Assembly (NCBI RefSeq): GCF_013167455.1
Contig: NZ_CP038328.1
Reading direction: 5' to 3' (one strand)
DNA: 64,000 nucleotides
Origin: Escherichia coli O157:H7
Lineage (GTDB): Bacteria > Pseudomonadota > Gammaproteobacteria > Enterobacterales > Enterobacteriaceae
This document shows, in pieces, positions 4,977 through 50,646 of this stretch (the first letter of the stretch is position 1; each line of letters opens with the position of its first letter). The notes beneath the pieces are model-generated. The model worked only from the letters and a program-made list of their open reading frames with translations, did no database searches and had not been told where the DNA came from. The position numbers and the translations under genes are program-made.

Positions 4977-5135
4977 TTACGCATTATCTTTGCAACATGC
5001 GTCACGGATCGCAGTTTTTGAGTGCTTGTGAACTGGCGTTACAGACATCGGGAAGCAGGCTCGAATATTCTTATTTTTCAACTTGCACCAACATTAGATT
5101 AACTCCAGACTAACGCCTCCTGACGGGAGGGACTC

Positions 5136-7737: not shown

Positions 7738-8592
7738 TTAGTTCTGCGGATTCAACGCGCTAAGGATAAAGTTCACCATCTGTTCGCGATAAACGTCGCC
7801 GTGACGATCGGAAAAAGCATCAATGTGTTCGCCATCCGGGATTAGGATCAACCGTTTTGGCTCTTTTGCCAGGCTATACAACTTTTCGCTGTGCTGCCAT
7901 GGGATAACGTGATCAGCTTTACCGTGAATGAGTAAAAGCGGGATCGGGCTGACGCTGGCGATATAATTTTCGCCGCTGTAACTCTCATCAAGTAAGTAGC
8001 CACTGCCGGGGATCATCTGGTTGGCGATGGTTGCATAAGAGGCAAATGTGGAGTCGAGGATCACTGCACGTATGCCTTCACGATCACCCTGACCAATAAC
8101 AGCAAGAATATTCGCCCCGCCAATACTCTGCCCGAACAGCACCAGCCGTTGTGGGTTTACATCACTGCGATGGCGCACCACATTGATGGCGCTTTGCGTA
8201 TCGTCCAGCAATCCGGCCTGGGACGGCGTGCCTTTTGATTTACCAAACCCGCGATAATCAAACATAAAAACGTTGAAATTACGCTCGGGTAACCAACTGA
8301 CCAGCGGCCAGTGGGCGGACATATTTCCGGCATTGCCGTGAGCATGAATGATGGTTGCGATGGCGTTGTCAGCAGGGCCCGTCGAAGAAGGAATAAACCA
8401 GCCTTGCAGACGAGTACCGTCCTTAGCCGTAAATTCGACGGATTCCGCCGACCAGGGGTCGGGACCGTAAATTTTATCGTCAGGATAATAGAAGAAGTTG
8501 ATGGCAACGCGCGGCACTAAATAAACGCAGAAGGCAACAACAAAGAGAATAAACAGAATTTTGGGAACGCGTTTGTTCACTGGCAGTGCCAT
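7738..8592 (-). CDS. yfhR: Alpha/beta-hydrolase (S9 peptidase-like) membrane-anchored protein
   Basis: ORF track frame 7738..8619; internal ATG at 8592 (MALPVNKR...) is preceded by AAGGAAAGG Shine-Dalgarno, the 8619 ATG is not; N-terminal TM helix, GQSIGG nucleophile elbow. Confidence 0.85.
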   Translation of the reverse strand: MALPVNKRVPKILFILFVVAFCVYLVPRVAINFFYYPDDKIYGPDPWSAESVEFTAKDGTRLQGWFIPSSTGPADNAIATIIHAHGNAGNMSAHWPLVSWLPERNFNVFMFDYRGFGKSKGTPSQAGLLDDTQSAINVVRHRSDVNPQRLVLFGQSIGGANILAVIGQGDREGIRAVILDSTFASYATIANQMIPGSGYLLDESYSGENYIASVSPIPLLLIHGKADHVIPWQHSEKLYSLAKEPKRLILIPDGEHIDAFSDRHGDVYREQMVNFILSALNPQN

Positions 8593-8736
8593 AACCTTTC
8601 CTTGCGACTTCTTTATCATCCATTAATCGGGGAAAGATGGTGGGAGAGTGACGAAAGAAAGTAAAGCGGTGAGGAAGTATTTCGGAATAGCGCCTGAAAG
8701 GCGAGGGCGGGTGAGTGATATCACCCGCCTGAGTCA

Positions 8737-9540
8737 TTAACGCTTCAGAGCGTCGCTTAACTCGTCACGCATGTTCGCCAGCATGGCTTTAACAACACGC
8801 GGGTTACCAGCAACGATGTTACCGGTCAGCATATAGTTATGACCACCGGTGAAGTCGCTGACGATGCCGCCCGCTTCACGAACAAGCAGCTCGCCTGCAG
8901 CGAAGTCCCACGGGCGCAGACCGATTTCAAAGAAACCGTCAACACGACCCGCAGCGACGTAAGCCAGATCCAGCGCCGCAGAACCGGTACGACGGAAGTC
9001 TGCACATTCGTTGAACAGTTTGCCGACGATGTTGATGTAGGTAGTGGCGTACTGTTTTGCTTTGAACGGGAAGCCGGTCGCCAGAATAGTACCGTCGAGA
9101 TCGCGAGCGGTGCTGCCGCGCAGACGGTAGCCGTTCAGCTGTGCGCCCTGACCGCGAGTGGCGGTGAACAGTTCGTTACGCATAGGATCGTATACCACAG
9201 CAACTTCGGTGCGGCCTTTGATACGAACGGCGATAGATACCGCGAAGTGCGGCAGACGTTTGATAAAGTTGGTAGTGCCATCCAGTGGATCGATAACCCA
9301 TTGAACATCCTGATCAGTACCTTCAAGTTCACCGCTTTCTTCGGTGATGATGGTGTGCTGTGGGTAAGATTTACGAATCGTGTCGATAATCACCGCTTCG
9401 GCAGCTTTATCTACGTTGGTCACGAAGTCGTTACTGCCTTTCTGGCTCGCTTCTACAGCGTCCGGGGTTTCATAGTTTTTGGCAATCAAATTACCCGCCT
9501 TGCGCGCTGCGCGCACGGCGATGTTCAGCATCGGATGCAT
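8737..9540 (-). CDS. suhB: Inositol monophosphatase family protein
   Basis: 267 aa ORF with IMPase motifs (EESG, DPLDGT, WDFAAG). Confidence 0.93.
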   Translation of the reverse strand: MHPMLNIAVRAARKAGNLIAKNYETPDAVEASQKGSNDFVTNVDKAAEAVIIDTIRKSYPQHTIITEESGELEGTDQDVQWVIDPLDGTTNFIKRLPHFAVSIAVRIKGRTEVAVVYDPMRNELFTATRGQGAQLNGYRLRGSTARDLDGTILATGFPFKAKQYATTYINIVGKLFNECADFRRTGSAALDLAYVAAGRVDGFFEIGLRPWDFAAGELLVREAGGIVSDFTGGHNYMLTGNIVAGNPRVVKAMLANMRDELSDALKR

Positions 9541-25185: not shown

Positions 25186-27498
25186 ATGCCTCGCTTGTTA
25201 ACCAAACGCGGCTGCTGGATAACGCTGGCAGCTGCGCCATTTCTCCTTTTTCTTGCAGCGTGGGGAGCAGATAAACTCTGGCCTCTACCGCTGCATGAAG
25301 TCAATCCCGCACGAGTGGTCGTGGCGCAGGATGGTACGCCGCTCTGGCGCTTCGCCGATGCTGACGGCATCTGGCGTTATCCTGTAACAATCGAAGATGT
25401 TTCTCCACGTTACCTTGAAGCGCTGATCAATTATGAAGATCGCTGGTTCTGGAAGCATCCTGGGGTGAATCCATTCTCGGTGGCGCGCGCAGCATGGCAA
25501 GATCTCACTTCGGGACGGGTTATTTCCGGTGGCAGCACGCTCACTATGCAGGTTGCTCGTCTGCTTGATCCTCACCCCAAAACATTTGGCGGCAAAATTC
25601 GCCAGCTCTGGCGCGCGTTGCAACTGGAATGGCATCTGTCTAAGCGTGAAATTCTGACCTTGTATCTTAACCGCGCTCCGTTTGGCGGTACGTTGCAGGG
25701 GATCGGTGCGGCAAGTTGGGCTTATCTCGGAAAGTCGCCTGCGAATTTAAGCTATTCCGAGGCGGCAATGCTGGCGGTTTTGCCGCAAGCGCCCAGCCGT
25801 CTTCGCCCGGATCGTTGGCCGGAGCGTGCCGAAGTCGCGCGTAATAAAGTGCTCGAACGGATGGCCGTGCAAGGTGTGTGGTCCCGTGAGCAGGTAAAAG
25901 AGTCAAGGGAAGAACCCATCTGGCTGGCACCCCGACAAATGCCGCAACTGGCACCGCTGTTTTCGCGCATGATGCTCGGTAAAAGCAAAAGCGACAAAAT
26001 CGTTACTACGCTGGATGCCGGTCTTCAACGACGTCTGGAAGAACTGGCGCAAAACTGGAAAGGACGATTACCACCGCGCAGCTCACTGGCGATGATCGTG
26101 GTTGATCATACCGATATGCGTGTTCGCGGCTGGGTGGGTTCGGTTGATCTCAACGATGATTCACGCTTTGGTCATGTTGATATGGTCAATGCGATCCGAT
26201 CGCCAGGATCGGTGCTCAAACCGTTTGTTTACGGTCTGGCGCTGGATGAAGGATTGATCCACCCGGCATCACTGCTGCAAGACGTCCCCCGGCGTACCGG
26301 TGATTACCGACCTGGCAACTTTGACAGCGGTTTTCATGGCCCGATCAGCATGAGCGAGGCGCTGGTGCGCTCGCTGAATTTACCTGCTGTGCAGGTGCTG
26401 GAAGCCTATGGACCGAAACGGTTTGCGGCAAAGTTACGCAATGTTGGATTGCCGTTATATTTGCCCAACGGTGCTGCGCCGAATCTTTCGCTCATTCTCG
26501 GCGGCGCTGGTGCGAAACTGGAAGATATGGCGGCAGCGTATACCGCGTTTGCTCGCCACGGCAAGGCAGGCAAATTGCGCTTACAGCCTGACGATCCGCT
26601 GCTTGAACGGCCTTTAATGTCGTCGGGAGCGGCGTGGATCATTCGCCGGATTATGGCTGATGAAGCGCTACCCTTGCCGGATGGTGCCTTGCCGCGCGTC
26701 GCCCCACTGGCATGGAAAACGGGCACCAGCTATGGCTATCGTGACGCCTGGGCGATTGGGGTTAACGCTCGCTATGTCATTGGGATCTGGACTGGCAGAC
26801 CGGACGGCACGCCCGTTGTTGGTCAGTTTGGTTTTGCCAGCGCCGTACCATTGTTGAATCAGGTCAATAATATCTTACTGTCGCGCAGTGCTAATCTGCC
26901 GGAAGACCCGCGCCCGAACTCAGTCACTCGTGGCGTTATTTGCTGGCCGGGCGGACAGTCTTTGCCGGAAGGTGACGGTAACTGTCGCCGCCGCCTGGCA
27001 ACCTGGCTGCTGGACGGGAGTCAGCCGCCAACTCTATTACTGCCGGAGCAGGAAGGCATTAATGGCATTCGTTTCCCCATCTGGCTGGATGAAAATGGCA
27101 AACGTGTTGCCGCTGATTGCCCGCAAGCGCGACAAGAAATGATAAATGTCTGGCCGCTACCGCTGGAACCCTGGTTGCCCGCATCAGAACGTCGCGCTGT
27201 GCGCTTACCACCGGCCTCGACAATTTGCCCGCCATACGGTCACGATGCCCAGCTCCCGCTGCAGCTGACAGGCGTTCGCGATGGCGAGATTATTAAACGT
27301 TTACCGGGCGCAGCGGAAGCGACTTTGCCGTTGCAATCAAGTGGAGGGGCAGGTGAACGCTGGTGGTTTCTGAATGGCGAACCGTTAACTGAACGCGGGC
27401 GCAACGTGACCCTGCATTTGACGGATAAAGGTGATTATCAATTGCTGGTGATGGATGACGTAGGGCAAATCGCGTCAGTACATTTTTCATTTCAGTGA
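25186..27498 (+). CDS. pbpC: Penicillin-binding protein 1C (bifunctional transglycosylase/transpeptidase)
   Basis: 770 aa ORF starting immediately after yfhM stop (taaATG); glycosyltransferase motifs EDRWFW and RQLWRALQLE. Confidence 0.93.
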   Translation: MPRLLTKRGCWITLAAAPFLLFLAAWGADKLWPLPLHEVNPARVVVAQDGTPLWRFADADGIWRYPVTIEDVSPRYLEALINYEDRWFWKHPGVNPFSVARAAWQDLTSGRVISGGSTLTMQVARLLDPHPKTFGGKIRQLWRALQLEWHLSKREILTLYLNRAPFGGTLQGIGAASWAYLGKSPANLSYSEAAMLAVLPQAPSRLRPDRWPERAEVARNKVLERMAVQGVWSREQVKESREEPIWLAPRQMPQLAPLFSRMMLGKSKSDKIVTTLDAGLQRRLEELAQNWKGRLPPRSSLAMIVVDHTDMRVRGWVGSVDLNDDSRFGHVDMVNAIRSPGSVLKPFVYGLALDEGLIHPASLLQDVPRRTGDYRPGNFDSGFHGPISMSEALVRSLNLPAVQVLEAYGPKRFAAKLRNVGLPLYLPNGAAPNLSLILGGAGAKLEDMAAAYTAFARHGKAGKLRLQPDDPLLERPLMSSGAAWIIRRIMADEALPLPDGALPRVAPLAWKTGTSYGYRDAWAIGVNARYVIGIWTGRPDGTPVVGQFGFASAVPLLNQVNNILLSRSANLPEDPRPNSVTRGVICWPGGQSLPEGDGNCRRRLATWLLDGSQPPTLLLPEQEGINGIRFPIWLDENGKRVAADCPQARQEMINVWPLPLEPWLPASERRAVRLPPASTICPPYGHDAQLPLQLTGVRDGEIIKRLPGAAEATLPLQSSGGAGERWWFLNGEPLTERGRNVTLHLTDKGDYQLLVMDDVGQIASVHFSFQ

Positions 27499-27592
27499 AA
27501 TATACAAAATATTTATTAATCTAATTATGGTATTTATATTTGGAATGCATTAATAATTTAATAATCTCACGTTTTTTTAAACGACTAATTAT

Positions 27593-27606
27593 TTGATTGT
27601 TATCAG
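27593..27606 (+). promoter_or_regulatory. FNR-like box upstream of the accessory molybdoenzyme operon
   Basis: TTGATtgttATCAg matches the FNR consensus TTGAT-N4-ATCAA at 9 of 10 positions, about 56 bp upstream of the ATG at 27662, inside an AT-rich intergenic region. Confidence 0.5.
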
Positions 27607-27661
27607 CATTGTTCTCGAATAAATACGTGAATATTTATTTTTTCATTTTCGGGAACGCAAG

Positions 27662-30043
27662 ATGGATACGCCAGACGAAAAGGAACGCATTACATTTCCG
27701 CAAGTATCACGACGTAGTTTTTTACAAGCGACTTCCGCGCTTATCACTTTGCCTTTTATTTCTTCTACCGCAAAGGCGCAATCCCCAGATGCGTCGCCAG
27801 AAGTTACAGCTCCAGTAGCTGATAAAGTCGTGCCCACCTGTAGCACATTTGACTGCGGTGGTAAGTGCGATATTCGGGCGCATATGCGCGACGGCGTGGT
27901 GACGCAAATTACCACGCTTCCCGATAACGAATTGGATCCACAAATGCCGATTATGCGCGCCTGTGTTCGTGGTCGCGGCTATCGTAAATTTGTTTATCAT
28001 CCAGACCGTTTGAAATATCCGATGAAGCGGGTAGGTAAACGAGGCGAGGGTAAATTTGAGCGTATCTCATGGGATGAGGCGACGACCTTAATTGCCGATA
28101 ACCTGAAAAGGATCACGCAACAATATGGCCCAGCTTCACGTTATGTCCATGTCGGGACGGCTGTTTCTGGTGGAACATTTTCTGGCGATGCGATGGCGCG
28201 TCGGCTGTTAAATTTAACCGGTGGTTATCTTGAATATTATCACTCAGTTAGTCTGGGTAATACTGCGGCGGCCACGCCTTACACGTATGGCGTGGCCGCG
28301 AGCGGTAACTCGATGGATACTCTTCTGGATACCAAACTGGTGATTCTCTGGGGGCATAACCCAACGGAAACCATATTCGGTCACACCAATTACTATTTTC
28401 AAAAAATGAAGCAAAACGGTACACGTTTTATCGTGGTGGATCCGCGCTATTCCGACACCGTATCTTCACTTGCCGATCAGTGGATCCCGCTGTTGCCGAC
28501 CACGGACAATGCGTTGATGGACGCGATGATGTACGTCATTATCAGCGAGAATCTCCACGATAAGACATTTATCGACACATATACTCTCGGTTTTGATGAA
28601 AACTCCATGCCGGAAGGCGTACCAGCCAACGAATCGTTGGTTGCCTACCTTTTTGGCGCAAAAGATGGGATACACAAAACGCCGGAATGGGCAGAAAAAA
28701 TTACCCACGTTCCAGCACAATCCATTCGTCAACTGGCACGCGATTACGCCACTACAAAACCCGCAGCGTTGATTCAGGGATGGGGGCCACAGCGACATAT
28801 TTGCGGCGAACGCACCGCCCGAGGTTCAACTTTACTGGCCTCGATTACCGGTAACGTCGGCATCAAAGGTGGCTGGGCGGCAGGTTACGGCGGTAGTTCT
28901 AATCGTAAATTCTGCGTTGGACCAGATATGCCAGAAAATCCGGTACAAGCGAAAATCTCGATTATGAACTGGATGCAGGCGGCGGATGATGCTTCTAAAG
29001 TTACGCCGCAAGATGGGCTTAAAGGTGTCGATAAACTCGACAGTAATATCCGCCTGCTGTTCTCACTGGCAGGTAATTATCTGGCGAACCAGAACCCGGA
29101 CGTCCACCAGGCCGCGAAGCTCCTTGAAGACGAATCTAAAATAGAATTCATCGTACTCAGCGATCTGTTCATGACTCCGAGCGCGAAATATGCCGATGTG
29201 TTGCTGCCGGAAACCAGCTTTATGGAACGCTGGAATATCGGCGAAACATGGGGAACTGCGAGCTATCTTATTCTGTCAGAAAAACCGATTGAGCCGGATT
29301 TTGAACGTCGCACCGATTATGACTGGTTGCGTGACGTGGCGAAAAAACTGGGTGTCGAAGCCGAGTTCAGTCAAGGACGTGATGAGAAGCAATGGATCGA
29401 GCATATCTGGGAGCAAACTCGTCTGGCGATGCCGGATGAAAATTTGCCGGACTTCGCAACCCTGCAAAAAACACGTCGACATCTTTTCAAAAGCGCGCCG
29501 CACATCGCTTTCGAAGCAAATATTCGCGATCCGCAGAATAATCCTTTCCCGACGCCTTCCGGCAAAATTGAGATCTTCTCTAAGCGTCTTTTTGATATGC
29601 AAGATCCAGAAATTCCCGCGCTTTCGCACTATGTCCCTGCCTTTGAAGGGCCAGAAGATAAACTGACGGCGAAATACCCGTTGCAGCTCATCACCTGGAA
29701 AGGGAAAAACCGTGCTAATTCCACCCAGTATGCTAACCCGTGGCTGCAAGAAGTTCAGACGCAAAAACTCTGGCTGAATCCGCAAGATGCAAAACAGCGC
29801 GGGATTAGCGAAGGAGATAGCGTAAAAATTTATAACGATCGTGGTGTGAGCATTATCCCGGTGGAAATAATCCCCCGTATCATCCCTGGCGTAGTTGCTA
29901 TGCAGGCGGGGGCATGGTGGCAACCGGATGCACAAGGTATCGATCGCGGAGGCTGTGCCAATGTACTGAGTTCGACCCGCATTACGGCGCTGGCGAAAGG
30001 GAATTCGCATCAAACAATGCTGGTGGAGGTTGAGAAAGCATGA
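27662..30043 (+). CDS. Tat-exported Mo-bisMGD oxidoreductase catalytic subunit, DMSO reductase (DmsA/YnfE) family; substrate unknown
   Basis: 793 aa ORF; twin-arginine signal SRRSFLQ...AKAQ; N-terminal Cys cluster CSTFDCGGKCD; block ACVRGRGYRKFVYHPDRLKYPMKRVGKRGEGKFERISWDEA nearly matches DmsA as recalled; ATGA overlap with next gene. Confidence 0.85.
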   Translation: MDTPDEKERITFPQVSRRSFLQATSALITLPFISSTAKAQSPDASPEVTAPVADKVVPTCSTFDCGGKCDIRAHMRDGVVTQITTLPDNELDPQMPIMRACVRGRGYRKFVYHPDRLKYPMKRVGKRGEGKFERISWDEATTLIADNLKRITQQYGPASRYVHVGTAVSGGTFSGDAMARRLLNLTGGYLEYYHSVSLGNTAAATPYTYGVAASGNSMDTLLDTKLVILWGHNPTETIFGHTNYYFQKMKQNGTRFIVVDPRYSDTVSSLADQWIPLLPTTDNALMDAMMYVIISENLHDKTFIDTYTLGFDENSMPEGVPANESLVAYLFGAKDGIHKTPEWAEKITHVPAQSIRQLARDYATTKPAALIQGWGPQRHICGERTARGSTLLASITGNVGIKGGWAAGYGGSSNRKFCVGPDMPENPVQAKISIMNWMQAADDASKVTPQDGLKGVDKLDSNIRLLFSLAGNYLANQNPDVHQAAKLLEDESKIEFIVLSDLFMTPSAKYADVLLPETSFMERWNIGETWGTASYLILSEKPIEPDFERRTDYDWLRDVAKKLGVEAEFSQGRDEKQWIEHIWEQTRLAMPDENLPDFATLQKTRRHLFKSAPHIAFEANIRDPQNNPFPTPSGKIEIFSKRLFDMQDPEIPALSHYVPAFEGPEDKLTAKYPLQLITWKGKNRANSTQYANPWLQEVQTQKLWLNPQDAKQRGISEGDSVKIYNDRGVSIIPVEIIPRIIPGVVAMQAGAWWQPDAQGIDRGGCANVLSSTRITALAKGNSHQTMLVEVEKA

Positions 30044-30669
30044 GCCAATTTAAAGAATTTGCATCTGTCAGCGACAAACAATTAGGGTTCTTTATTGACT
30101 CTTCGCGTTGTTCGGGCTGTAAAGCGTGTCAGGTGGCCTGTAAAGACAAAAACAACCTTGAGGTTGGGCGACGTTTTCGCCGCGTGTATGAAGTGAACGG
30201 AGGTGGCTTCATCGCCACTGGAGAGGGCGGTGTGAGTCATAATGTCTTTGCTTATACCCTTTCTGTTTCCTGTAACCATTGCGCGGATCCGATCTGTACC
30301 AAAAATTGCCCGACGATGGCGATGCATAAGCGTCCCGGAGACGGTATTGTGCGCGTGAATACTGATAAGTGCGTCGGTTGCGGTTACTGCGCCTGGTCCT
30401 GTCCTTACGGCGCACCACAAATGAATGAGCAGACCGGGCAGATGTCGAAATGCGATTTCTGTATTGATCTGCAAGCTAAAGGAGAACAACCCATTTGCGT
30501 GGCAACGTGCCCGTTGGGGGCGATTAAGTTCGGCCCTATTGATGAGTTGCGTGAAAAGTATGGCGATGTCAGTGATGTGAAAGGTTTACCTGATTCGTCG
30601 ATTACGCAGCCAAATCTGGTGATTAAACCGCATCAGGGCGCGGAAAAGGAGGCGTCACATCATGCATGA
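30040..30669 (+). CDS. Four-cluster [4Fe-4S] electron-transfer subunit, DmsB/YnfG family
   Basis: 209 aa ORF with four ferredoxin Cys motifs (CSGCKACQVAC, CNHCADPICTKNCP, CVGCGYCAWSCP, CDFC...CVATCP); GGAGG Shine-Dalgarno; overlaps neighbours. Confidence 0.85.
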   Translation: MSQFKEFASVSDKQLGFFIDSSRCSGCKACQVACKDKNNLEVGRRFRRVYEVNGGGFIATGEGGVSHNVFAYTLSVSCNHCADPICTKNCPTMAMHKRPGDGIVRVNTDKCVGCGYCAWSCPYGAPQMNEQTGQMSKCDFCIDLQAKGEQPICVATCPLGAIKFGPIDELREKYGDVSDVKGLPDSSITQPNLVIKPHQGAEKEASHHA

Positions 30670-31483
30670 ATTACCGTTAATGGCTTTTACGCTGTTGTTA
30701 CAGGCATCGGTCGGTATGACGTTGTGGCTGGCGTTTCTTCATCGTCATATTTTAATCACCTCCAGCGCCCGCCCGGTTATGCGGCCGCCATTACTGTTGG
30801 CTTTTTTGGCAGGTGCCGTAGGGTTACTGATTTCTACCTTACACCTGGGTTATCCACTTAATGCGATGCATGCGCTGAGCCACTTTTCCAGTTCATGGCT
30901 GAGTCGGGAAATTATCTTTGGTGCGCTGTATCTGGCGCTATTGGGTTTATCCACATTACTGGTCATGTTACGCAAAGGCGGCTGGCAACTCCTGCTTATG
31001 CTAGCGGCAGTGGTCGGGATTGTTGATGTTTTCTGCATGGCGCAAGTTTACATCCATACGTCGATTATCACCTGGCAGCATTACAACACGCTGATTATGT
31101 TCTTAGGTACAGTGGGAATTCTCGGTTCAGCGCTGGTAGCAGTGTTTCGTATTAGCGGAATTTTGCCGCAGATTGATGCCCTGCGTAATGGATGCGTGTT
31201 GGTGATCGCTCTCCTGGTTCTGCTGCGTTTGTTGGTTCAGCCGTTGTGGATAGGGGATTTAACGGCAAATGCGATGCAGATAGCCACATTGCCACATGCG
31301 CCATTAGCGATGCTGGGACAGTTAAAACCCATACTGACACTAAGCTGGGGAATTTCCGTCATTGGGATGATGTTCTTTGCTGTCGGTGGTTGTAAAAAGA
31401 ATATCCCGGCGGCGTTATTCGGTAGCGTAATGCTAGTGGGGAGTGAAGTTATGCTGCGTTTTGTCTTTTTTAGTATCGGCTAA
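30662..31483 (+). CDS. Integral membrane anchor subunit, DmsC/YnfH family
   Basis: 273 aa ORF with about 8 hydrophobic segments; AGGAGG Shine-Dalgarno; 8 bp overlap with upstream gene and TAATG overlap with downstream gene. Confidence 0.75.
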   Translation: MHELPLMAFTLLLQASVGMTLWLAFLHRHILITSSARPVMRPPLLLAFLAGAVGLLISTLHLGYPLNAMHALSHFSSSWLSREIIFGALYLALLGLSTLLVMLRKGGWQLLLMLAAVVGIVDVFCMAQVYIHTSIITWQHYNTLIMFLGTVGILGSALVAVFRISGILPQIDALRNGCVLVIALLVLLRLLVQPLWIGDLTANAMQIATLPHAPLAMLGQLKPILTLSWGISVIGMMFFAVGGCKKNIPAALFGSVMLVGSEVMLRFVFFSIG

Positions 31484-32337
31484 TGTTAAGTCATAACATA
31501 ACGATTGGCGCGGAATGCGCGCGCCAACGCTTTCGTTTTGCAACATGTCATGCCTGTGTCGAGGCTTGCCCGGCACAGGCGCTAACGCTGACAGAAGAGG
31601 GCATAGCGGTCGACGCGGAACAATGTATTGATTGTGCGGTTTGCCAGTTTATTTGTCCGCAAGAGGCTATTCGTGGCGTTAATTCCCCTTTACGTTATTT
31701 TTGCAATCACACCCTGGTCGCACCTTTCACCACTATTGCGCCGACGCTGGAAGAACTTTTGCTATGGCATAAAGAGCAGGGGATCACAGCGATCGCGATT
31801 GATCTGAGTCAGGCGAAGGCATGGGAGCGCGCATTATTGCTGTTAAACGAATGCTTACGGCAATATGGCGAGGAAGGCTGGTCTGTGGTATCTCCACATA
31901 CCAGTGAGGTGAATGTTTCCCGGCGTCGTTTGTTCCATGTGCAGCGTGCGGATGTTCAGATGACACAAATACAACCAGGATTACGTCGGTTACATTATTT
32001 ATGGCCCCAGATTAGTGATGCTCGCCCGATGATGGATCCTCAAAAGTGTCAGCTTTGCGGTGCATGCTGGCGGGCCTGCGAGCAACAGGTCTTTTCGCTT
32101 AACGAAGGCCATTTACAAATAAATGATGCCTTGTGTAACGGATGCCAAAATTGTATTGCTGTTTGTTTTCATCAGGCAATGACCGTTGAATTGACGATTC
32201 TACCGGCAAAAATTGTGAATCTTCATGCTAATCGCAAAGTCTGTAAAACCTGTCAAAAATCCTTTCTTACTTTTCAGCAAAATGCGCAAAATTGTCTTTA
32301 TTGCCAACGTCATCGTTATGGGATGAGAACACCATAA
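31483..32337 (+). CDS. Cysteine-rich polyferredoxin-like protein (NapF/iron-sulfur maturation-like?), function unknown
   Basis: 284 aa ORF, no signal peptide; motifs CHACVEACP, CIDCAVCQFICP, CQLCGACWRACE, CNGCQNCIAVC, plus C-terminal CKTC-x13-CLYC; translationally coupled to the membrane subunit. Confidence 0.7.
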   Translation: MLSHNITIGAECARQRFRFATCHACVEACPAQALTLTEEGIAVDAEQCIDCAVCQFICPQEAIRGVNSPLRYFCNHTLVAPFTTIAPTLEELLLWHKEQGITAIAIDLSQAKAWERALLLLNECLRQYGEEGWSVVSPHTSEVNVSRRRLFHVQRADVQMTQIQPGLRRLHYLWPQISDARPMMDPQKCQLCGACWRACEQQVFSLNEGHLQINDALCNGCQNCIAVCFHQAMTVELTILPAKIVNLHANRKVCKTCQKSFLTFQQNAQNCLYCQRHRYGMRTP

Positions 32338-32477
32338 AAGTCGAGTTGTTGCTAAAACTCATTTTATTTTAAAAAAATGTTACCTTCATCAATAGTCAAC
32401 GGCTCTGTTGCTCATTATAATCCGCGCCATCTCGTACGCTGGTACAGACAACAACAGAACAATTTACAGAGGTAAAA

Positions 32478-32909
32478 ATGGCTATTGAACGTACTTTTTC
32501 CATTATCAAACCGAACGCGGTAGCAAAAAACGTCATTGGTAATATCTTTGCGCGCTTTGAAGCTGCAGGGTTCAAAATTGTCGGCACCAAAATGCTGCAC
32601 CTGACCGTTGAACAGGCACGTGGCTTTTATGCTGAACACGATGGAAAACCGTTCTTTGATGGTCTGGTTGAATTCATGACCTCTGGCCCGATCGTGGTTT
32701 CCGTGCTGGAAGGTGAAAACGCCGTTCAGCGTCACCGCGATCTGCTGGGCGCGACCAATCCGGCAAACGCACTGGCCGGTACTCTGCGCGCTGATTACGC
32801 TGACAGCCTGACCGAAAACGGTACCCACGGTTCTGATTCCGTCGAATCTGCCGCTCGCGAAATCGCTTATTTCTTCGGCGAAGGCGAAGTGTGCCCGCGC
32901 ACCCGTTAA
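32478..32909 (+). CDS. ndk: Nucleoside diphosphate kinase
   Basis: 143 aa [24 protein letters not shown] with active-site NGTHGSDS. Confidence 0.95.
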
Positions 32910-33058
32910 TAATTTCGTAAATGCCGCGTGCAAACGTGGCATCCGTGCGCCAGAATTTGTACAATGCAGCGCCCCCGGACGAGCAGCCGCTCACCGGGGC
33001 GTTTCTTTTTTCAACCCTCCAGGGGCCATAACGTGTAATAACGAGGCCGGAATAGCAT

Positions 33059-44805: not shown

Positions 44806-46383
44806 ATGACGGAAAACATTCATAAGCATCGCATCCTCATTCTGGACTTCGGTTCTCAGTACACTCAACTGGTTGCGCGCCGCGTGCGTGAGCTGGGTGT
44901 TTACTGCGAACTGTGGGCATGGGATGTGACAGAAGCACAAATTCGTGACTTCAATCCAAGCGGCATTATTCTTTCCGGCGGCCCGGAAAGTACTACTGAA
45001 GAAAACAGCCCGCGTGCGCCGCAGTATGTCTTTGAAGCAGGCGTACCGGTATTCGGCGTTTGCTATGGCATGCAGACCATGGCAATGCAGTTGGGCGGTC
45101 ACGTTGAAGCCTCTAACGAACGTGAATTTGGCTACGCGCAGGTTGAAGTCGTAAACGACAGCGCACTGGTTCGCGGTATCGAAGATGCGCTGACCGCAGA
45201 CGGTAAACCGCTGCTCGATGTCTGGATGAGCCACGGCGATAAAGTTACCGCTATCCCGTCCGACTTCGTCACCGTAGCCAGCACCGAAAGCTGCCCGTTT
45301 GCCATTATGGCTAACGAAGAAAAACGCTTCTATGGCGTACAGTTCCACCCGGAAGTGACTCACACCCGCCAGGGTATGCGCATGCTGGAGCGTTTTGTGC
45401 GTGATATCTGCCAGTGTGAAGCCCTGTGGACGCCAGCGAAAATTATCGACGATGCTGTAGCTCGCATCCGCGAGCAGGTAGGCGACGATAAAGTCATCCT
45501 CGGCCTCTCTGGTGGTGTGGATTCCTCCGTAACCGCAATGCTGCTGCACCGCGCTATCGGTAAAAACCTGACTTGCGTATTCGTCGACAACGGCCTGCTG
45601 CGTCTCAACGAAGCAGAGCAGGTTCTGGATATGTTTGGCGATCACTTTGGTCTTAACATTGTTCACGTACCGGCAGAAGATCGCTTCCTGTCAGCGCTGG
45701 CTGGCGAAAACGATCCGGAAGCAAAACGTAAAATCATCGGTCGCGTTTTCGTTGAAGTATTCGATGAAGAAGCGCTGAAACTGGAAGACGTGAAGTGGCT
45801 GGCGCAGGGCACCATCTACCCTGACGTTATCGAATCTGCGGCGTCTGCAACCGGTAAAGCACACGTCATCAAATCTCACCACAACGTGGGCGGCCTGCCG
45901 AAAGAGATGAAGATGGGCCTGGTTGAACCGCTGAAAGAGCTGTTCAAAGACGAAGTGCGTAAGATTGGTCTGGAGCTGGGCCTGCCGTACGACATGCTGT
46001 ACCGTCACCCGTTCCCGGGACCAGGCCTTGGCGTTCGTGTTCTGGGTGAAGTGAAGAAAGAGTACTGTGACCTGCTGCGCCGTGCTGACGCCATCTTCAT
46101 TGAAGAACTGCGTAAAGCGGACCTGTACGACAAAGTCAGCCAGGCGTTCACCGTCTTCCTGCCAGTACGTTCCGTTGGCGTAATGGGCGATGGTCGTAAG
46201 TATGACTGGGTTGTCTCTCTGCGTGCTGTCGAAACCATCGACTTTATGACCGCACACTGGGCGCATCTGCCGTACGATTTCCTCGGTCGCGTTTCCAACC
46301 GCATTATCAATGAAGTGAACGGTATTTCCCGCGTGGTGTATGACATCAGCGGCAAGCCACCAGCTACCATTGAGTGGGAATGA
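44806..46383 (+). CDS. guaA: GMP synthase (glutamine-hydrolysing)
   Basis: 525 aa ORF; GATase Cys (GVCYGMQ), PP-loop SGGVDSS. Confidence 0.95.
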
Positions 46384-46410
46384 TTTGACCCTGCACTATG
46401 AATGAACAAA

Positions 46411-46438
46411 ACCCTCTGTTACTACAGAGGGTTTTTTA
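46411..46438. terminator. Rho-independent terminator after guaA
   Basis: accctctgttactacagagggtttttt. Confidence 0.75.
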
Positions 46439-46475
46439 TCTTCAAGAATTATAGGCTTGAAGTTACTAACATCGA

Positions 46476-47015
46476 TTAATTAAACCAGCTGTCCGATTTA
46501 TTCTCTTCTGCTTTGCCCACGCTTTTCATCAGATCGCGACCGCCTTCAGTCATATTTCTGTTGGCGTCAGCTTCAGATTGCACGACATCAGTTTGCGCGG
46601 CTTTGTGCTTCAGCTCCTGATCGATAAATTCGTTTTCTCGCTTAACGCGGGCTTCTTCTTTTGCCAGCGCCAGTTTTTGTTTCTGAATCTCTAAGCTGCG
46701 TAGCTCATCTTCATAACTTTGATCGCGTTTTTTGTCCGCAGTGGCTTCGGCGTCCAGTTTATCCTGACGAGCTTTCTTATTTGCCGCTGCCGTTGCCGCT
46801 CTTTTGTTAGCGGCAGCCTGGGCATTTGCGCGACGTTGCTTCTCTTGCTGGATTTCCCTGTTGCGCTCCGCGACCCATTCGTCATGCTGCCTTTGCTCTT
46901 CATTTTTACCTTGCTGTTCCGCTTCTGCGACAGCAGAGAGTTGATCCTGCAATGATGAGGCGATAGCCGGATAGCTTAAGGAGGCTAAGATGGCGCAAAG
47001 AAAAACTTTCTTCAT
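46476..47015 (-). CDS. yfgI: Secreted low-complexity charged (coiled-coil) protein YfgI
   Basis: 179 aa ORF; signal peptide MKKVFLCAILASLSYPAIASS, then a Gln/Glu/Lys/Ala-rich sequence. Confidence 0.85.
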   Translation of the reverse strand: MKKVFLCAILASLSYPAIASSLQDQLSAVAEAEQQGKNEEQRQHDEWVAERNREIQQEKQRRANAQAAANKRAATAAANKKARQDKLDAEATADKKRDQSYEDELRSLEIQKQKLALAKEEARVKRENEFIDQELKHKAAQTDVVQSEADANRNMTEGGRDLMKSVGKAEENKSDSWFN

Positions 47016-47030
47016 GACTCCTCCTGATTA

Positions 47031-47549
47031 TTAGCTCTTTTCAGGACATTTGGTATTTGGCTGAATACGCGTTTCGTTATACGTCGTGGTAATAACAACG
47101 GCTAAACCTGTCGTAAACTGGCACTCTTTACCCACCTGAGTAGAGGTATACACTTTGGTGCCTTCCTTATACGTTAAAGAAACACCTTCCACTAAGGTTT
47201 TATCATTCATCATAGAACCCGCTGCCGCGCCTACAGCTCCGCCGCCAACTGCACCTGCCGTCGTTCCGGAATTGCTGCCAGACCCGACGTTGTGGCCGAT
47301 AACACCGCCAGCGACTGCGCCAATAAGCGCGCCGAAGGCTTGTGCGTTCCGTTTATTTTGGGAGTTGTCTACGGCAACTTTTGCGGGAAGAATGGAAATA
47401 ATATTAACGGTTTTAGTTTCTTGTTTGGTATTCAGTTGATCGGTTTGATAAACATCGGCGGCATGATCGTCAGCATTTGACTGGCATCCTGCCAGAGTGA
47501 ATGACGCTAACATTGCCACAGGCAGAAGACATTTTTTAAATTTCATCAC
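47031..47549 (-). CDS. yfgH: Glycine-zipper outer-membrane lipoprotein YfgH
   Basis: 172 aa ORF; lipobox FTLAGCQS; Gly/Ala-rich segment GALIGAVAGGVIGHNVGSG. Confidence 0.85.
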   Translation of the reverse strand: MMKFKKCLLPVAMLASFTLAGCQSNADDHAADVYQTDQLNTKQETKTVNIISILPAKVAVDNSQNKRNAQAFGALIGAVAGGVIGHNVGSGSNSGTTAGAVGGGAVGAAAGSMMNDKTLVEGVSLTYKEGTKVYTSTQVGKECQFTTGLAVVITTTYNETRIQPNTKCPEKS

Positions 47550-47859
47550 TATTCCTTGTTATACACATTACGAAAAATAAGACATTTAAGATCATCAAAA
47601 GAGGAAAGTAAATGTATTGCGTATAAAGGGATGGATTAAATTTATTAAAATTCACGCCGGGAATAATTTATAAAAATACATCATTACAACATATATATTA
47701 ATTTTATATTTATTTCGCAGCCAAACAGGATAAACATCAGTCGGGACAAAGACGTATAATTTAAGATGAAAGAATATCTGCCGCTTTGATAATTCCAAAG
47801 AGCAAAAGCATCCGACAGCGAAGCGCCGTTATGTTCTGTGAAAGTGGAGAAGGTAACCG

Positions 47860-48051
47860 CTAACGTTGTACCGGTGATTCGACGGAGAGTGTGGATTGCT
47901 GAGCTTCTTTTTTGCTCTGATGGTGCTGCCAGGCACCGACGGACGAGTAGATAAAACGGCCAAAGAAGAAGATAAAGCTGATGAGCAGTACGATACGGGT
48001 CATGCGACTGTTAAATCGGTGTCGTTTTCGCATACTGGTTGCCTGACTCAC
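47860..48051 (-). CDS. yfgG: Small membrane protein YfgG
   Basis: 63 aa ORF with one hydrophobic helix (IVLLISFIFFFGRFIY). Confidence 0.7.
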   Translation of the reverse strand: MSQATSMRKRHRFNSRMTRIVLLISFIFFFGRFIYSSVGAWQHHQSKKEAQQSTLSVESPVQR

Positions 48052-48261
48052 AAAAGGTTCCTTGAAGTATGTCCCACGCCGTGGACGGTACTTACATTAA
48101 GGCACAACAGGACAAAATGGTCAATTCTTCGTTATGTAAAAAATCGTCAGTGGATACATATTTTAATGTTATGGAAGTTAATTTAATTATTTACAATGAT
48201 GATGTAATAATGATGAATTAACATGATAAACGTAATAATTCATTAATCAGGGTTATTTTGT

Positions 48262-48275
48262 TTGATATATATCAA
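48262..48275 (+). promoter_or_regulatory. Consensus FNR box upstream of pdeF
   Basis: TTGATatatATCAA is an exact match to TTGAT-N4-ATCAA, in the AT-rich divergent region between yfgG and pdeF. Confidence 0.65.
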
Positions 48276-48402
48276 TTGGAACTTTCATATGACACTTAGA
48301 ATCAATGCTCTCTATAGTGATGAATAATCATCATTCGAAGTCAGGTGGGATGCCTGTCTGAATACACCTCCTTCAGGATGTGGGGGATTCTGCTGAGCAT
48401 CT

Positions 48403-50646
48403 ATGAAACTGAATGCAACTTATATAAAAATACGTGATAAATGGTGGGGGCTTCCGCTGTTCCTGCCTTCTTTAATCTTGCCCATTTTCGCCCACATTAA
48501 TACTTTCGCGCATATTTCTTCCGGTGAGGTTTTTCTCTTTTATCTGCCTCTGGCACTGATGATCAGCATGATGATGTTTTTCAGCTGGGCGGCATTGCCA
48601 GGGATCGCCTTAGGGATTTTTGTCCGCAAATATGCAGAGCTGGGTTTTTACGAAACGCTCTCATTAACGGCTAATTTTATTATCATTATCATTCTCTGTT
48701 GGGGCGGTTACAGGGTCTTTACTCCCCGGCGTAACAACGTTTCACATGGTGATACCCGTTTAATTTCCCAGCGTATATTCTGGCAGATTGTGTTTCCTGC
48801 AACGCTGTTTCTGATACTTTTCCAGTTTGCTGCATTTGTAGGATTACTGGCGAGCAGAGAAAATCTGGTTGGCGTCATGCCTTTTAATCTCGGGACCTTA
48901 ATCAATTATCAGGCCTTACTGGTGGGCAATCTGATTGGTGTCCCGCTGTGCTACTTCATCATTCGGGTAGTGCGAAATCCGTTTTATTTACGTAGTTATT
49001 ATTCGCAATTAAAACAGCAGGTTGATGTCAAAGTCACCAAAAAAGAGTTCGCACTCTGGCTGCTGGCATTAGGTGCTTTACTGTTGCTGTTATGCATGCC
49101 GTTAAATGAAAAAAGCACAATTTTTAGCACCAATTATACCTTGTCATTATTGCTGCCCCTGATGATGTGGGGAGCGATGCGCTATGGTTATAAGCTGATT
49201 TCGCTGCTCTGGGCGGTCGTGTTGATGATCAGCATCCACAGCTATCAAAATTACATTCCCATTTATCCTGGCTATACCACGCAGCTGACCATAACCTCCT
49301 CCAGTTATCTGGTATTCTCTTTTATTGTCAATTATATGGCTGTACTGGCAACCCGTCAGAGAACGGTAGTCAGACGCATTCAGCGCCTTGCGTATGTGGA
49401 CCCGGTGGTTCATCTGCCAAATGTTCGCGCCCTGAATCGCGCGTTGCGTGATGCCCCCTGGTCTGCGCTTTGTTATTTACGCATCCCTGGCATGGAAATG
49501 CTGGTTAAAAACTATGGCATCATGCTGCGGATTCAATACAAGCAAAAACTTTCTCACTGGCTGTCACCCTTGCTGGAACCAGGTGAAGATGTTTATCAGC
49601 TTTCGGGTAACGATCTCGCGCTGCGACTGAATACAGAATCGCACCAGGAGCGCATTACCGCACTGGATAGCCATCTCAAGCAATTTCGTTTCTTTTGGGA
49701 TGGCATGCCGATGCAACCGCAGATTGGCGTCAGTTACTGCTATGTGCGCTCGCCAGTGAATCATATCTACCTGCTGCTGGGAGAGCTAAATACGGTCGCC
49801 GAACTTTCCATCGTGACCAACGCCCCGGAAAATATGCAGCGTCGCGGGGCAATGTATTTGCAACGCGAATTGAAAGATAAAGTCGCGATGATGAATCGAC
49901 TACAGCAGGCGCTGGAACACAACCATTTTTTCCTGATGGCCCAGCCGATTACCGGTATGCGTGGTGATGTTTACCATGAAATTCTTCTGCGCATGAAAGG
50001 TGAGAATGATGAACTAATCGGCCCCGATAGCTTCTTGCCGGTCGCGCACGAATTTGGTTTATCGTCGAGTATCGACATGTGGGTCATTGAGCATACGCTG
50101 CAATTTATGGCTGAAAACAGAGCGAAGATGCCCGCTCACCGTTTTGCTATTAATCTGTCTCCAACCTCGGTATGTCAGGCTCGTTTTCCTGTTGAAGTCA
50201 GTCAGTTGCTGGATAAATATCAGATTGAAGCGTGGCAACTTATTTTTGAAGTCACCGAAAGTAATGCTCTGACCAATGTTAAGCAGGCGCAAATCACCTT
50301 GCAGCATCTTCAGGAATTAGGCTGCCAGATTGCGATTGATGATTTCGGCACCGGCTACGCCAGCTATGCGCGGCTTAAAAATGTGAATGCCGATCTGCTT
50401 AAAATTGACGGCAGTTTTATCCGCAATATTGTGTCAAATAGTCTGGATTATCAGATAGTGGCATCGATTTGCCACCTGGCGCGAATGAAGAAAATGCGGG
50501 TAGTGGCAGAGTACGTTGAAAACGAAGAGATCCGCGAGGCGGTGCTCTCTTTGGGGATCGATTATATGCAGGGTTATCTTATTGGTAAGCCGCAACCGTT
50601 AATTGATACGCTGAATGAAATCGAACCCATTCGCGAAAGTGCCTGA
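48403..50646 (+). CDS. pdeF: Membrane-bound c-di-GMP phosphodiesterase (MASE1, degenerate GGDEF, EAL)
   Basis: 747 aa ORF; multi-pass N-terminal half; EAL-domain signature in C-terminal half. Confidence 0.9.
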   Translation: MKLNATYIKIRDKWWGLPLFLPSLILPIFAHINTFAHISSGEVFLFYLPLALMISMMMFFSWAALPGIALGIFVRKYAELGFYETLSLTANFIIIIILCWGGYRVFTPRRNNVSHGDTRLISQRIFWQIVFPATLFLILFQFAAFVGLLASRENLVGVMPFNLGTLINYQALLVGNLIGVPLCYFIIRVVRNPFYLRSYYSQLKQQVDVKVTKKEFALWLLALGALLLLLCMPLNEKSTIFSTNYTLSLLLPLMMWGAMRYGYKLISLLWAVVLMISIHSYQNYIPIYPGYTTQLTITSSSYLVFSFIVNYMAVLATRQRTVVRRIQRLAYVDPVVHLPNVRALNRALRDAPWSALCYLRIPGMEMLVKNYGIMLRIQYKQKLSHWLSPLLEPGEDVYQLSGNDLALRLNTESHQERITALDSHLKQFRFFWDGMPMQPQIGVSYCYVRSPVNHIYLLLGELNTVAELSIVTNAPENMQRRGAMYLQRELKDKVAMMNRLQQALEHNHFFLMAQPITGMRGDVYHEILLRMKGENDELIGPDSFLPVAHEFGLSSSIDMWVIEHTLQFMAENRAKMPAHRFAINLSPTSVCQARFPVEVSQLLDKYQIEAWQLIFEVTESNALTNVKQAQITLQHLQELGCQIAIDDFGTGYASYARLKNVNADLLKIDGSFIRNIVSNSLDYQIVASICHLARMKKMRVVAEYVENEEIREAVLSLGIDYMQGYLIGKPQPLIDTLNEIEPIRESA

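Follow-up and report, generated by a model that had tools for sequence, protein, structure and literature searches.

A DmsABC-type operon of Escherichia coli O157:H7 that lacks a chaperone gene may borrow DmsD in trans and encode a candidate maturation polyferredoxin

Which factors mature the catalytic subunit of a Tat-exported molybdoenzyme when its operon encodes no DmsD/TorD-type chaperone? The question is raised by four plus-strand open reading frames at positions 27662–32337 of the window, by which we mean the whole stretch of E. coli O157:H7 DNA that was analysed (64,000 nucleotides). Neighbouring frames overlap by 1–8 bp, in agreement with how RefSeq annotates identical O157:H7 genomes, and their positions and family matches are listed in Table 1 together with the associated features.

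Table 1. The four-gene operon and its associated features in the window
Feature	Position	Strand	Basis
O157:H7 segment absent from K-12, pbpC end to ndk promoter region	27491..32345		Window aligned locally with the K-12 pbpC-ndk junction
FNR-like box TTGATtgttATCAg, 9/10 consensus bases, putative anaerobic promoter element	27593..27606	+	Pattern match
Subunit A, catalytic, DMSO/selenate-family Mo-bisPGD reductase, 793 aa	27662..30043	+	TIGR02166, PF00384, PF01568, PF04879
Tat leader of A, aa 1–39, MDTPDEKERITFPQVSRRSFLQATSALITLPFISSTAKA	27662..27778	+	Read from sequence
Subunit B, electron-transfer, four-cluster ferredoxin, DmsB type, 209 aa	30040..30669	+	TIGR02951 DMSO_dmsB, PF13247
Subunit C, membrane anchor, DmsC type, 273 aa	30662..31483	+	PF04976
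F, polyferredoxin, 284 aa, proposed cytoplasmic maturation factor	31483..32337	+	4Fe-4S ferredoxin domains

The products of the first three genes fall in the families that make up reductase complexes of the DmsABC/YnfEFGH type, and E. coli dmsABC itself encodes an enzyme of the same TIGR02166, TIGR02951 and PF04976 families. Subunit A scores 1122 bits on TIGR02166 (dmsA_ynfE; cutoff 778) and B 265.8 bits on TIGR02951 (cutoff 214) in an NCBIfam scan, C matches the Pfam DmsC profile with E=1.2e-23 across profile positions 5–273 of 275, and A begins with a predicted twin-arginine leader. Assignment of A specifically to DmsA, YnfE or YnfF was rejected, as its near-equal scores on the three models (705, 668 and 692 bits, respectively) lie far below the cutoffs of these NCBIfam exception models (1600, 1675 and 1650 bits); A thus represents a third clade that is neither DmsA nor YnfE/F. 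The operon departs from dmsABC in other ways too: the first Fe-S motif of A is C-x4-C-x3-C rather than the C-x3-C-x3-C of DmsA, the leader is eight residues shorter, and there is a fourth gene, F. We consider it probable that the locus specifies a complete, periplasm-facing DmsABC-type molybdoenzyme with a conserved cytoplasmic polyferredoxin encoded alongside.

The initial annotation spoke of an accessory operon, which is misleading for a locus that has kept its synteny across Enterobacteriaceae and has been lost by deletion from most E. coli. Of 5426 complete E. coli genomes, 379 contain the island at 80% coverage or more; the proportion of E. coli in which the locus has been deleted is about 93%. 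The pbpC–ndk site is also filled in Citrobacter, Salmonella arizonae and diarizonae, Enterobacter, Lelliottia, Huaxiibacter and Pseudocitrobacter; in S. enterica subsp. arizonae and diarizonae the arrangement is pbpC-[A-B-C-F]-ndk, with A 83–84% identical to its O157 counterpart. Judged by gene order, the O157 locus is orthologous to STM2530–STM2527 of Salmonella Typhimurium, a dmsABC-like four-gene operon that likewise has a fourth gene and for which gene numbering in LT2 points to the same synteny (bioRxiv 10.1101/2022.11.29.517730). STM2530 shares 43% identity with E. coli DmsA, showed no DMSO-linked growth phenotype in its sole experimental report, and belongs to an enzyme type that S. Typhi and Paratyphi A have lost through inactivation (bioRxiv 10.1101/2022.11.29.517730).

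The FNR-box pattern occurs at two sites in the 64 kb, where 0.28 are expected. One of these is 69 bp upstream of the A start codon and the other is upstream of pdeF. Of 16 orthologous operons, 11 have a box with at least 9/10 matches at 67–72 bp before the start codon, and the O157 operon is probably under FNR control, a function that we infer for the box.

No gene for a signal-peptide-binding chaperone belongs to the operon, and several searches bear out what the initial annotation had concluded from the four reading frames. First, a scan of all six frames of 27499–32460 against Pfam (E≤10) returned the molybdopterin, Fer4 and DmsC families only, with no match to PF02613 (TorD/DmsD/NarJ), NapD, FdhE, HyaE or HybE; the small overlooked chaperone frame within the cluster that would have overturned the earlier conclusion was thus sought in six frames and not found. 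Second, neither the DmsD nor the TorD model of NCBIfam matched any of the four ORF proteins. Third, when E. coli DmsD and two DmsD-like proteins from operons were used as tblastn queries against the whole window, the best match had E≥5, while the same search detects a DmsD-family gene directly 3′ of F in four orthologous operons. Finally, local alignment shows that homology to K-12 starts again 9 bp past the F stop codon, leaving no room for a fifth gene or its remnant. The premise that such an absence is unusual does not hold, however, since the classic dmsABC operon is built alike: the serS-dmsABC-ycaC region contains no chaperone gene, and DmsA is served in trans by DmsD (PMC4464133, PMC12096835).

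As is the case for dmsABC, the gene for DmsD lies at another site in the genome. In an O157 genome bearing the identical island, dmsD (WP_000148710.1, the same protein as in a K-12-like strain) is located at 2541451–2542065, about 1.22 Mb from the operon, as the last gene of ynfEFGH-dmsD. It is present in 5418 of the 5426 complete genomes, and therefore in at least 371 of those carrying the island. Relatives of the operon are also informative. Four orthologous operons, with subunits A and B 77–80% and 80–84% identical to those of O157, carry a fifth, DmsD-family gene 10–35 bp after F (order A-B-C-F-D), and locus L010 also has this gene, broken by a scaffold gap. On the NCBIfam DmsD equivalog model (cutoff 162) the operon-borne proteins of loci L006 and L007 score 176 bits, that of locus L011 150 bits and that of Chimaeribacter arupi (L021) 147 bits; the best PDB match of the L006 protein is E. 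coli DmsD (E=8e-34). That a DmsD-family gene has been kept after F in four orthologous operons argues that this type of enzyme uses such a chaperone.

It seems unlikely that the chaperone acting in trans is instead another member of the NarJ subfamily (TorD, YcdY, NarJ or NarW). E. coli does have five such chaperones with some cross-binding, such as that of DmsD to the TorA leader (PMC4464133), and for the chaperones encoded beside F in Vibrio and Gallibacterium the TorD model gives slightly higher scores than the DmsD model (82 vs 61 and 66 vs 46 bits, respectively). The latter operons have a different catalytic subunit of 859 aa, however, and the chaperones borne by operons of the orthologous enzyme all score best as DmsD (147–176 bits, vs 58–70 bits for TorD). 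Moreover, A shares an L-P-F leader motif with DmsA, YnfE and YnfF, and to our knowledge this motif is absent from the TorA and NapA leaders.

The A leader contains a twin-arginine motif, S16-R-R-S-F-L21, followed by a hydrophobic stretch that ends in L-P-F, as in DmsA, and by A-K-A, after which cleavage is predicted. The epitope recognized by DmsD has been mapped on Salmonella YnfE to L24/A28/V31/L33/F35, with Ser a frequent alternative to A28 in other DmsD clients (PMC5203670). When the leaders of A, DmsA, YnfE and YnfF are aligned on L-P-F, a putative epitope is apparent in A as L21, S25, I28, L30, P31 and F32, and five of these (L21, S25, I28, L30 and F32) are at matching spacing, where DmsA has L, S, L, L and F. 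At these positions (-11, -7, -4, -2, -1 and 0) all 12 of the leaders from operons without a fifth gene conform to [LI]-S-[ILV]-L-P-F, and the known clients have LSLLPF (DmsA), LSFLPF (YnfF) and LAFLPF (YnfE), whereas the four operons with their own DmsD have IAAVPL, IAAVPL, IAAVPT and VSMVPF – a 12-versus-4 split that does not correspond to 16 independent events, as the four may be one clade, and a contrast that may reflect shared ancestry. The A leader is also compact, with 15 residues from the first arginine of the pair to the phenylalanine as opposed to 23 in DmsA, YnfE and YnfF; the hydrophobic region is eight residues shorter, which places epitope position -11 within the twin-arginine consensus (SRRSFL).

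The short leader could be taken to favor maturation of A with no dedicated chaperone at all, by general chaperones together with the Moco and Fe-S machinery. Among the 13 operons for this enzyme without a fifth gene, none includes a chaperone gene at the locus, and the association of REMP genes with molybdoenzyme operons is variable (PMC4464133). Nonetheless, we regard this as rather improbable, because all five mapped DmsD epitope positions are kept in the A leader, a DmsD-family gene immediately follows F in the four orthologous operons, and both DmsA and YnfE require DmsD (PMC5203670, PMC12096835). Maturation of pre-A most likely depends on the chromosomal DmsD encoded outside the locus. 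The initial annotation had offered either an outside chaperone, with DmsD as the example, or the polyferredoxin; the former is the better supported, by the presence of dmsD in the genome, the DmsD of relatives and the leader epitope, and the latter has not fared well.

What, then, is the role of F? The protein contains two ferredoxin domains of the 2x[4Fe-4S] type (Cys 12/22/25/29 and 48/51/54/58; Cys 189/192/195/199 and 218/221/224/228) separated by a small alpha/beta domain and linker at about residues 70–180, and terminates in a CxxC...CxxC knuckle (Cys 254/257/271/274). No signal peptide or transmembrane segment is seen in its sequence, and its only profile matches in Pfam and NCBIfam are to 4Fe-4S ferredoxin domains. 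Sixteen of the cysteines are invariant, in four groups of the CxxCxxCxxxC type of which the first is C-x9-C-x2-C-x3-C, and F belongs to an unnamed 20-Cys family with members in Enterobacterales, Vibrio, Pasteurellaceae, Betaproteobacteria and Bacillaceae, located beside at least three types of molybdoenzyme.

There is an evident parallel to NapF. This protein resides in the cytoplasm, contains four tetra-cysteine [4Fe-4S] motifs, and both binds NapA and aids Fe-S assembly in it; its gene is present in some operons only, together with those for a Tat-exported molybdoenzyme and a separate signal-peptide chaperone (PMC10609526). F has the same complement of four invariant Cys4 groups, but is larger (284 aa, vs 164 aa for NapF), with an alpha/beta insert domain and a further, fifth Cys4 site, and its partner chaperones are of the TorD/DmsD type rather than NapD. 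Full-length homology is not apparent: hhalign of the F profile with E. coli NapF aligned 46 columns, covering one ferredoxin domain only, NapF is missing from the best 25 of 70 NCBIfam matches of F, and no full-length relative of F was found among solved structures. A second parallel is with Haemophilus influenzae dmsABCDE, in which DmsD and the NapF-like DmsE are both proposed to act in maturation (PMC8340005). The five-gene relatives follow the same logic of DmsD plus an Fe-S protein, with the order F-D rather than D-E, and the E. coli locus differs in having no D; a search with a Pasteurellaceae F homolog returned no Haemophilus protein.

F and TorD-family genes are present together in seven gene clusters, so the two are not alternatives. 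In Vibrio and Gallibacterium, for example, the genes run TorD family-A-B-C-F, and a metagenome contig (L031) has A-B-NrfD-(TorD family)-F-TatA. It is therefore very unlikely that leader binding or proofreading is done by F in place of a chaperone, which was the second possibility raised by the initial annotation. F is strictly tied to this operon type and kept wherever the DmsD gene is missing, its parts include a Cys4 knuckle and a domain that is not a ferredoxin, and NapF binds NapA before export (PMC10609526), but F resembles neither TorD/DmsD nor NapD in sequence or fold, and a homolog in Bacillus sp. EB01 is alone, far from any molybdoenzyme gene. F was rejected as a TorD/DmsD-type chaperone, as its high-confidence structural model has no TorD fold and its sequence is not TorD-like; chaperones of this type have an all-alpha fold of about 200 aa, and Salmonella DmsD has 11 helices and no strands (PMC5203670).

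Rates of divergence bear on whether F could be a structural electron-transfer subunit, either exported with A-B as a hitchhiker or docked on C. Across orthologs F, the chaperone and the anchor are 31–52% identical and the redox subunits A and B 77–90%; between loci L006 and L011, for example, identities are 47% for F, 49% for D and 52% for C, as compared to 80% for A and 86% for B. Because F diverges as fast as D and C, unlike A and B, it evolves like an accessory protein. This pattern counts against a structural role, as do the position of F between the chaperone gene and tatA in the metagenome contig and the orphan homolog in Bacillus. We also know of no cofactor in DmsC-type anchors that could take electrons from a cytoplasmic partner. 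We thus think a structural subunit improbable, if the least so of the alternatives to the reading that we prefer, in which F is most plausibly a NapF-like cytoplasmic maturation factor. More tentatively, F could define a new family of cytoplasmic proteins devoted to the maturation of Tat-exported Mo-bisPGD enzymes, acting alongside chaperones of the TorD/DmsD type.

Overall, we propose – with a probability of roughly 0.6 – that the operon encodes a DmsABC-like enzyme with an FNR-type promoter that borrows DmsD in trans and has F as a partner maturation factor. Pre-A would be held and proofread by the chromosomal DmsD from ynfEFGH-dmsD, and A would then pair with B and be exported by Tat, an arrangement as known for DmsA. 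F would act beside DmsD and not instead of it, probably as a NapF-like Fe-S donor or reductive maturation factor.

A DmsABC-type operon without a chaperone gene is the textbook arrangement in E. coli, and the absence alone matters little. The prediction is that the enzyme of O157:H7 and the STM2530 type is DmsD-dependent through leader residues L21, S25, I28 and F32, and the operons with and without their own DmsD provide a natural comparison set for the co-evolution of leader and chaperone. By analogy with NapF, the F family may have a general and overlooked role in maturing periplasmic molybdoenzymes, and if so the E. coli locus would be a natural case of F function in cis with chaperone function in trans.

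The four open reading frames lie in a stretch of the window (27000–33000) that is 100% identical to many O157:H7 genomes, in the gene order yfhM, pbpC, the four ORFs, ndk, rlmN, rodZ, ispG and hisS. All four are in the same orientation with overlaps of 1–8 bp and thus appear to form a single operon, and our own family scans of A, B, C and F agree with the RefSeq names (see table). A twin-arginine leader (MDTPDEKERITFPQVSRRSFLQATSALITLPFISSTAKA) opens the catalytic subunit A, which scores 705, 692 and 668 bits against the DmsA, YnfF and YnfE models, respectively, well under their cutoffs of 1600–1675. Its first Fe-S cluster motif is C-x4-C-x3-C (CSTFDCGGKC, residues 59–68), a one-residue insertion relative to the C-x3-C-x3-C counterparts of DmsA and YnfE (CTVNCGSRC and CSVNCGSRC); the longer form is seen in all ortholog leaders and N-termini compared, and the insertion may explain the weak PF04879 score of A (25.7 bits).

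An FNR-like box (TTGATtgttATCAg) precedes the start codon of A by 69 bp. Of 16 orthologous operons, 11 have a box matching at least nine of the ten consensus bases 67–72 bp ahead of the start (F-homolog loci L002, L004, L008, L009 and L015–L020, with some at a different chromosomal site), which suggests that anaerobic, FNR-dependent expression is conserved. A perfect palindromic FNR consensus (TTGATATATATCAA), which served solely as an informal check that the pattern picks up such sites, is found ~130 bp upstream of pdeF (yfgF), an anaerobic gene that is FNR-dependent. The pdeF region is also relatively low in G+C (0.44–0.46 versus ~0.50–0.55 around it).

Features of the operon and of compared loci (window positions unless a locus handle is given)
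Feature	Coordinates	Strand	RefSeq name or description	Best family match	Ortholog identity to E. coli protein
A, catalytic subunit	27662–30043	+	DMSO/selenate family reductase complex A subunit	TIGR02166, 1122 bits (cutoff 778)	77–89%
B, electron-transfer subunit	30040–30669	+	DMSO/selenate family reductase complex B subunit	TIGR02951, 266 bits (cutoff 214)	80–90%
C, DmsC-type anchor	30662–31483	+	dimethyl sulfoxide reductase anchor subunit family protein	PF04976, E=1.2e-23	38–62%
F, polyferredoxin (284 aa)	31483–32337	+	4Fe-4S dicluster domain-containing protein	ferredoxin domains only (residues 20–65 and 180–235), no other families	31–53%
Segment absent from K-12	27491–32345
FNR-like box	27593–27606
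First Fe-S motif of A	27836–27865
Lower G+C region	46000–50000		yfgI, yfgH, yfgG, pdeF
Palindromic FNR consensus	48262–48275
L014 (Pseudocitrobacter faecalis), A homolog	4155–5537		single matched segment, A residues 332–792 only
L029 (Bacillus sp. EB01), F homolog	8001–8915		full-length member between a cupin gene and cotE
L031 (metagenome contig), tatA/B/E-family gene	8915–9121		start overlapped by the F gene

The initial annotation held that the operon encodes no DmsD/TorD-type chaperone, and three lines of evidence bear this out. First, the six frames of 27499–32460 were translated with stops as X and scanned against Pfam at E≤10, and the sole families recovered were molybdopterin, Fer4 and DmsC, with no match to PF02613 (TorD/DmsD/NarJ), NapD, FdhE, HyaE or HybE. 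Second, tblastn of three queries, E. coli DmsD and two proteins resembling it, against the full 64-kb window gave a best E of 5. Third, homology to K-12 restarts 9 bp past the F stop codon, leaving no room for a fifth gene or its remnant. A chaperone pseudogene following F is excluded by this breakpoint, and is also disfavored by the F-to-ndk gap of ~120–150 bp in Citrobacter, Salmonella and other syntenic loci.

The absence is not, however, the departure from the norm that it was taken to be, as the canonical dmsABC operon lacks a chaperone gene too. In a K-12-like genome serS-dmsA-dmsB-dmsC precedes ycaC, which is encoded on the opposite strand, and dmsD is the terminal gene of ynfEFGH-dmsD; DmsABC requires DmsD, yet DmsD is encoded in trans (PMC4464133; PMC12096835; PMC8340005). 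In an O157 genome with an identical island dmsD is located at 2541451–2542065, ~1.22 Mb from the island, and its product (WP_000148710.1) is common to that genome and the K-12-like strain. Of 5426 complete E. coli genomes, 5418 carry dmsD and 379 the island. The best-supported reading overall is that maturation would depend on a chaperone encoded outside the locus, most likely DmsD, and we place its probability at roughly 0.6.

The contexts of F homologs show that the A-B-C-F operon recurs in many Enterobacterales, and that four such operons (L006/L007, L010, L011 and L021, the last from Chimaeribacter arupi) have a fifth gene 10–35 bp 3′ of F. This gene is of the DmsD family: the L006 product scores 176 bits against the NCBIfam DmsD equivalog (cutoff 162) and has E. 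coli DmsD as its best PDB match (E=8e-34), and those of L011 and L021 score 150 and 147 bits against the DmsD model, with TorD scores of only 58–70 bits. The fifth gene is missing from 13 operons, namely those of E. coli, Escherichia sp. (L013), Citrobacter freundii, Pseudocitrobacter, Enterobacter sp. RIT418, Lelliottia, Huaxiibacter, Salmonella enterica subsp. arizonae and diarizonae, and Enterobacillus, together with three metagenomic loci at a carB/kefF site. Its presence in four orthologous operons argues that this type of enzyme uses a DmsD-type chaperone, and its absence from others that some lineages can do without the gene at this site. The catalytic gene of the Pseudocitrobacter faecalis locus, matched over a single segment, may be frameshifted or truncated.

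The leader peptides of A, with the L-P-F proline as the alignment anchor and the Phe numbered 0, follow a similar division. All 12 readable leaders from operons without their own DmsD have [LI]-S-[ILV]-L-P-F at positions -11, -7, -4, -2, -1 and 0, and the same positions in the E. coli clients read LSLLPF (DmsA), LSFLPF (YnfF) and LAFLPF (YnfE), whereas the four leaders accompanied by an operon-borne DmsD read IAAVPL, IAAVPL, IAAVPT and VSMVPF. The dissociation constant reported for YnfE is ~45 nM. A28 of the mapped DmsD epitope in Salmonella YnfE is frequently serine in other DmsD clients (PMC5203670). The pattern is suggestive of, and consistent with, leaders adapted to the resident DmsD wherever a private copy is missing, with the caveat that the hydrophobic region of the island leader is eight residues shorter. 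The DmsD-bearing operons may also represent one clade, and the pattern falls short of statistical proof.

The arrangement pbpC-[A-B-C-F]-ndk is also present in Escherichia sp., Citrobacter, Salmonella arizonae and diarizonae, Pseudocitrobacter, Enterobacter, Lelliottia and Huaxiibacter. A recent foreign insertion is rejected, because this synteny spans at least seven genera and A has diverged about as much as pbpC; the locus is instead ancestral, and cleanly deleted in ~93% of complete E. coli genomes. Deletion of the segment elsewhere also alters the final codons of pbpC. The E. coli locus corresponds to Salmonella Typhimurium STM2530–STM2527, a four-gene dmsABC-like operon whose catalytic subunit STM2530 gave no growth advantage with DMSO and is disrupted by a frameshift in S. 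Typhi and Paratyphi A; the Salmonella dmsD deletion was made solely in a background already lacking STM2530 (bioRxiv 10.1101/2022.11.29.517730).

An exhaustive profile search for the F family yielded 76 cluster representatives at E≤1e-30, and the cluster names checked are all generic (e.g. '4Fe-4S binding protein', 'ferredoxin'). Full-length relatives of 283–311 aa occur in Vibrio porteresiae, Gallibacterium salpingitidis, Uliginosibacterium, Bacillus sp. EB01 and Mesobacillus zeae. Twenty cysteines are invariant in 63 sequences, forming four Cys4 cluster motifs and a C-terminal CxxC...CxxC. A structure model from a 13-sequence alignment was poor (pLDDT 60), with Foldseek matches confined to ferredoxin domains; the 63-sequence alignment gave a pLDDT of 92.3. 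In Bacillus sp. EB01 F is alone, with no molybdoenzyme genes within 8 kb, so in Bacillaceae the family may work in trans or serve some wider function.

The initial annotation offered F as the alternative to an outside chaperone, and it is this part of the proposal that fares poorly. F and a TorD-family chaperone occur together in seven gene clusters, which argues against F as a chaperone substitute. Among these clusters, the order is TorD-family, A (859 aa), B, DmsC, F in Vibrio porteresiae and Gallibacterium, and A, B, NrfD, TorD-family, F, TatA in L031, where chaperone, F and TatA make up an accessory block 3′ of the molybdoenzyme genes. Between L006 and L011, F (47% identity) diverges like the chaperone (49%) and anchor (52%) and unlike A (80%) and B (86%), behavior expected of an accessory protein and not of a core electron wire. 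This uneven divergence, with C and F changing as fast as the operon-borne chaperone, is a feature of the operon as a whole.

The closest functional analog of F is NapF, a cytoplasmic four-cluster protein found in some nap operons only, which binds NapA and aids its Fe-S assembly (PMC10609526), although F aligns with E. coli NapF over 46 columns only. In the H. influenzae dmsABCDE operon DmsD is paired with the NapF-like DmsE (PMC8340005); when the F homolog of Gallibacterium was used as a protein query to probe the relation of F to DmsE, no Haemophilus protein was retrieved. By this analogy F could have a NapF-like role, at slightly less than even odds, and it fits the part of a companion in maturation better than that of a chaperone replacement. 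The DmsABC-like operon without a chaperone gene is a further case of a known arrangement, and the uncharacterized F family is the more novel thread of the locus.
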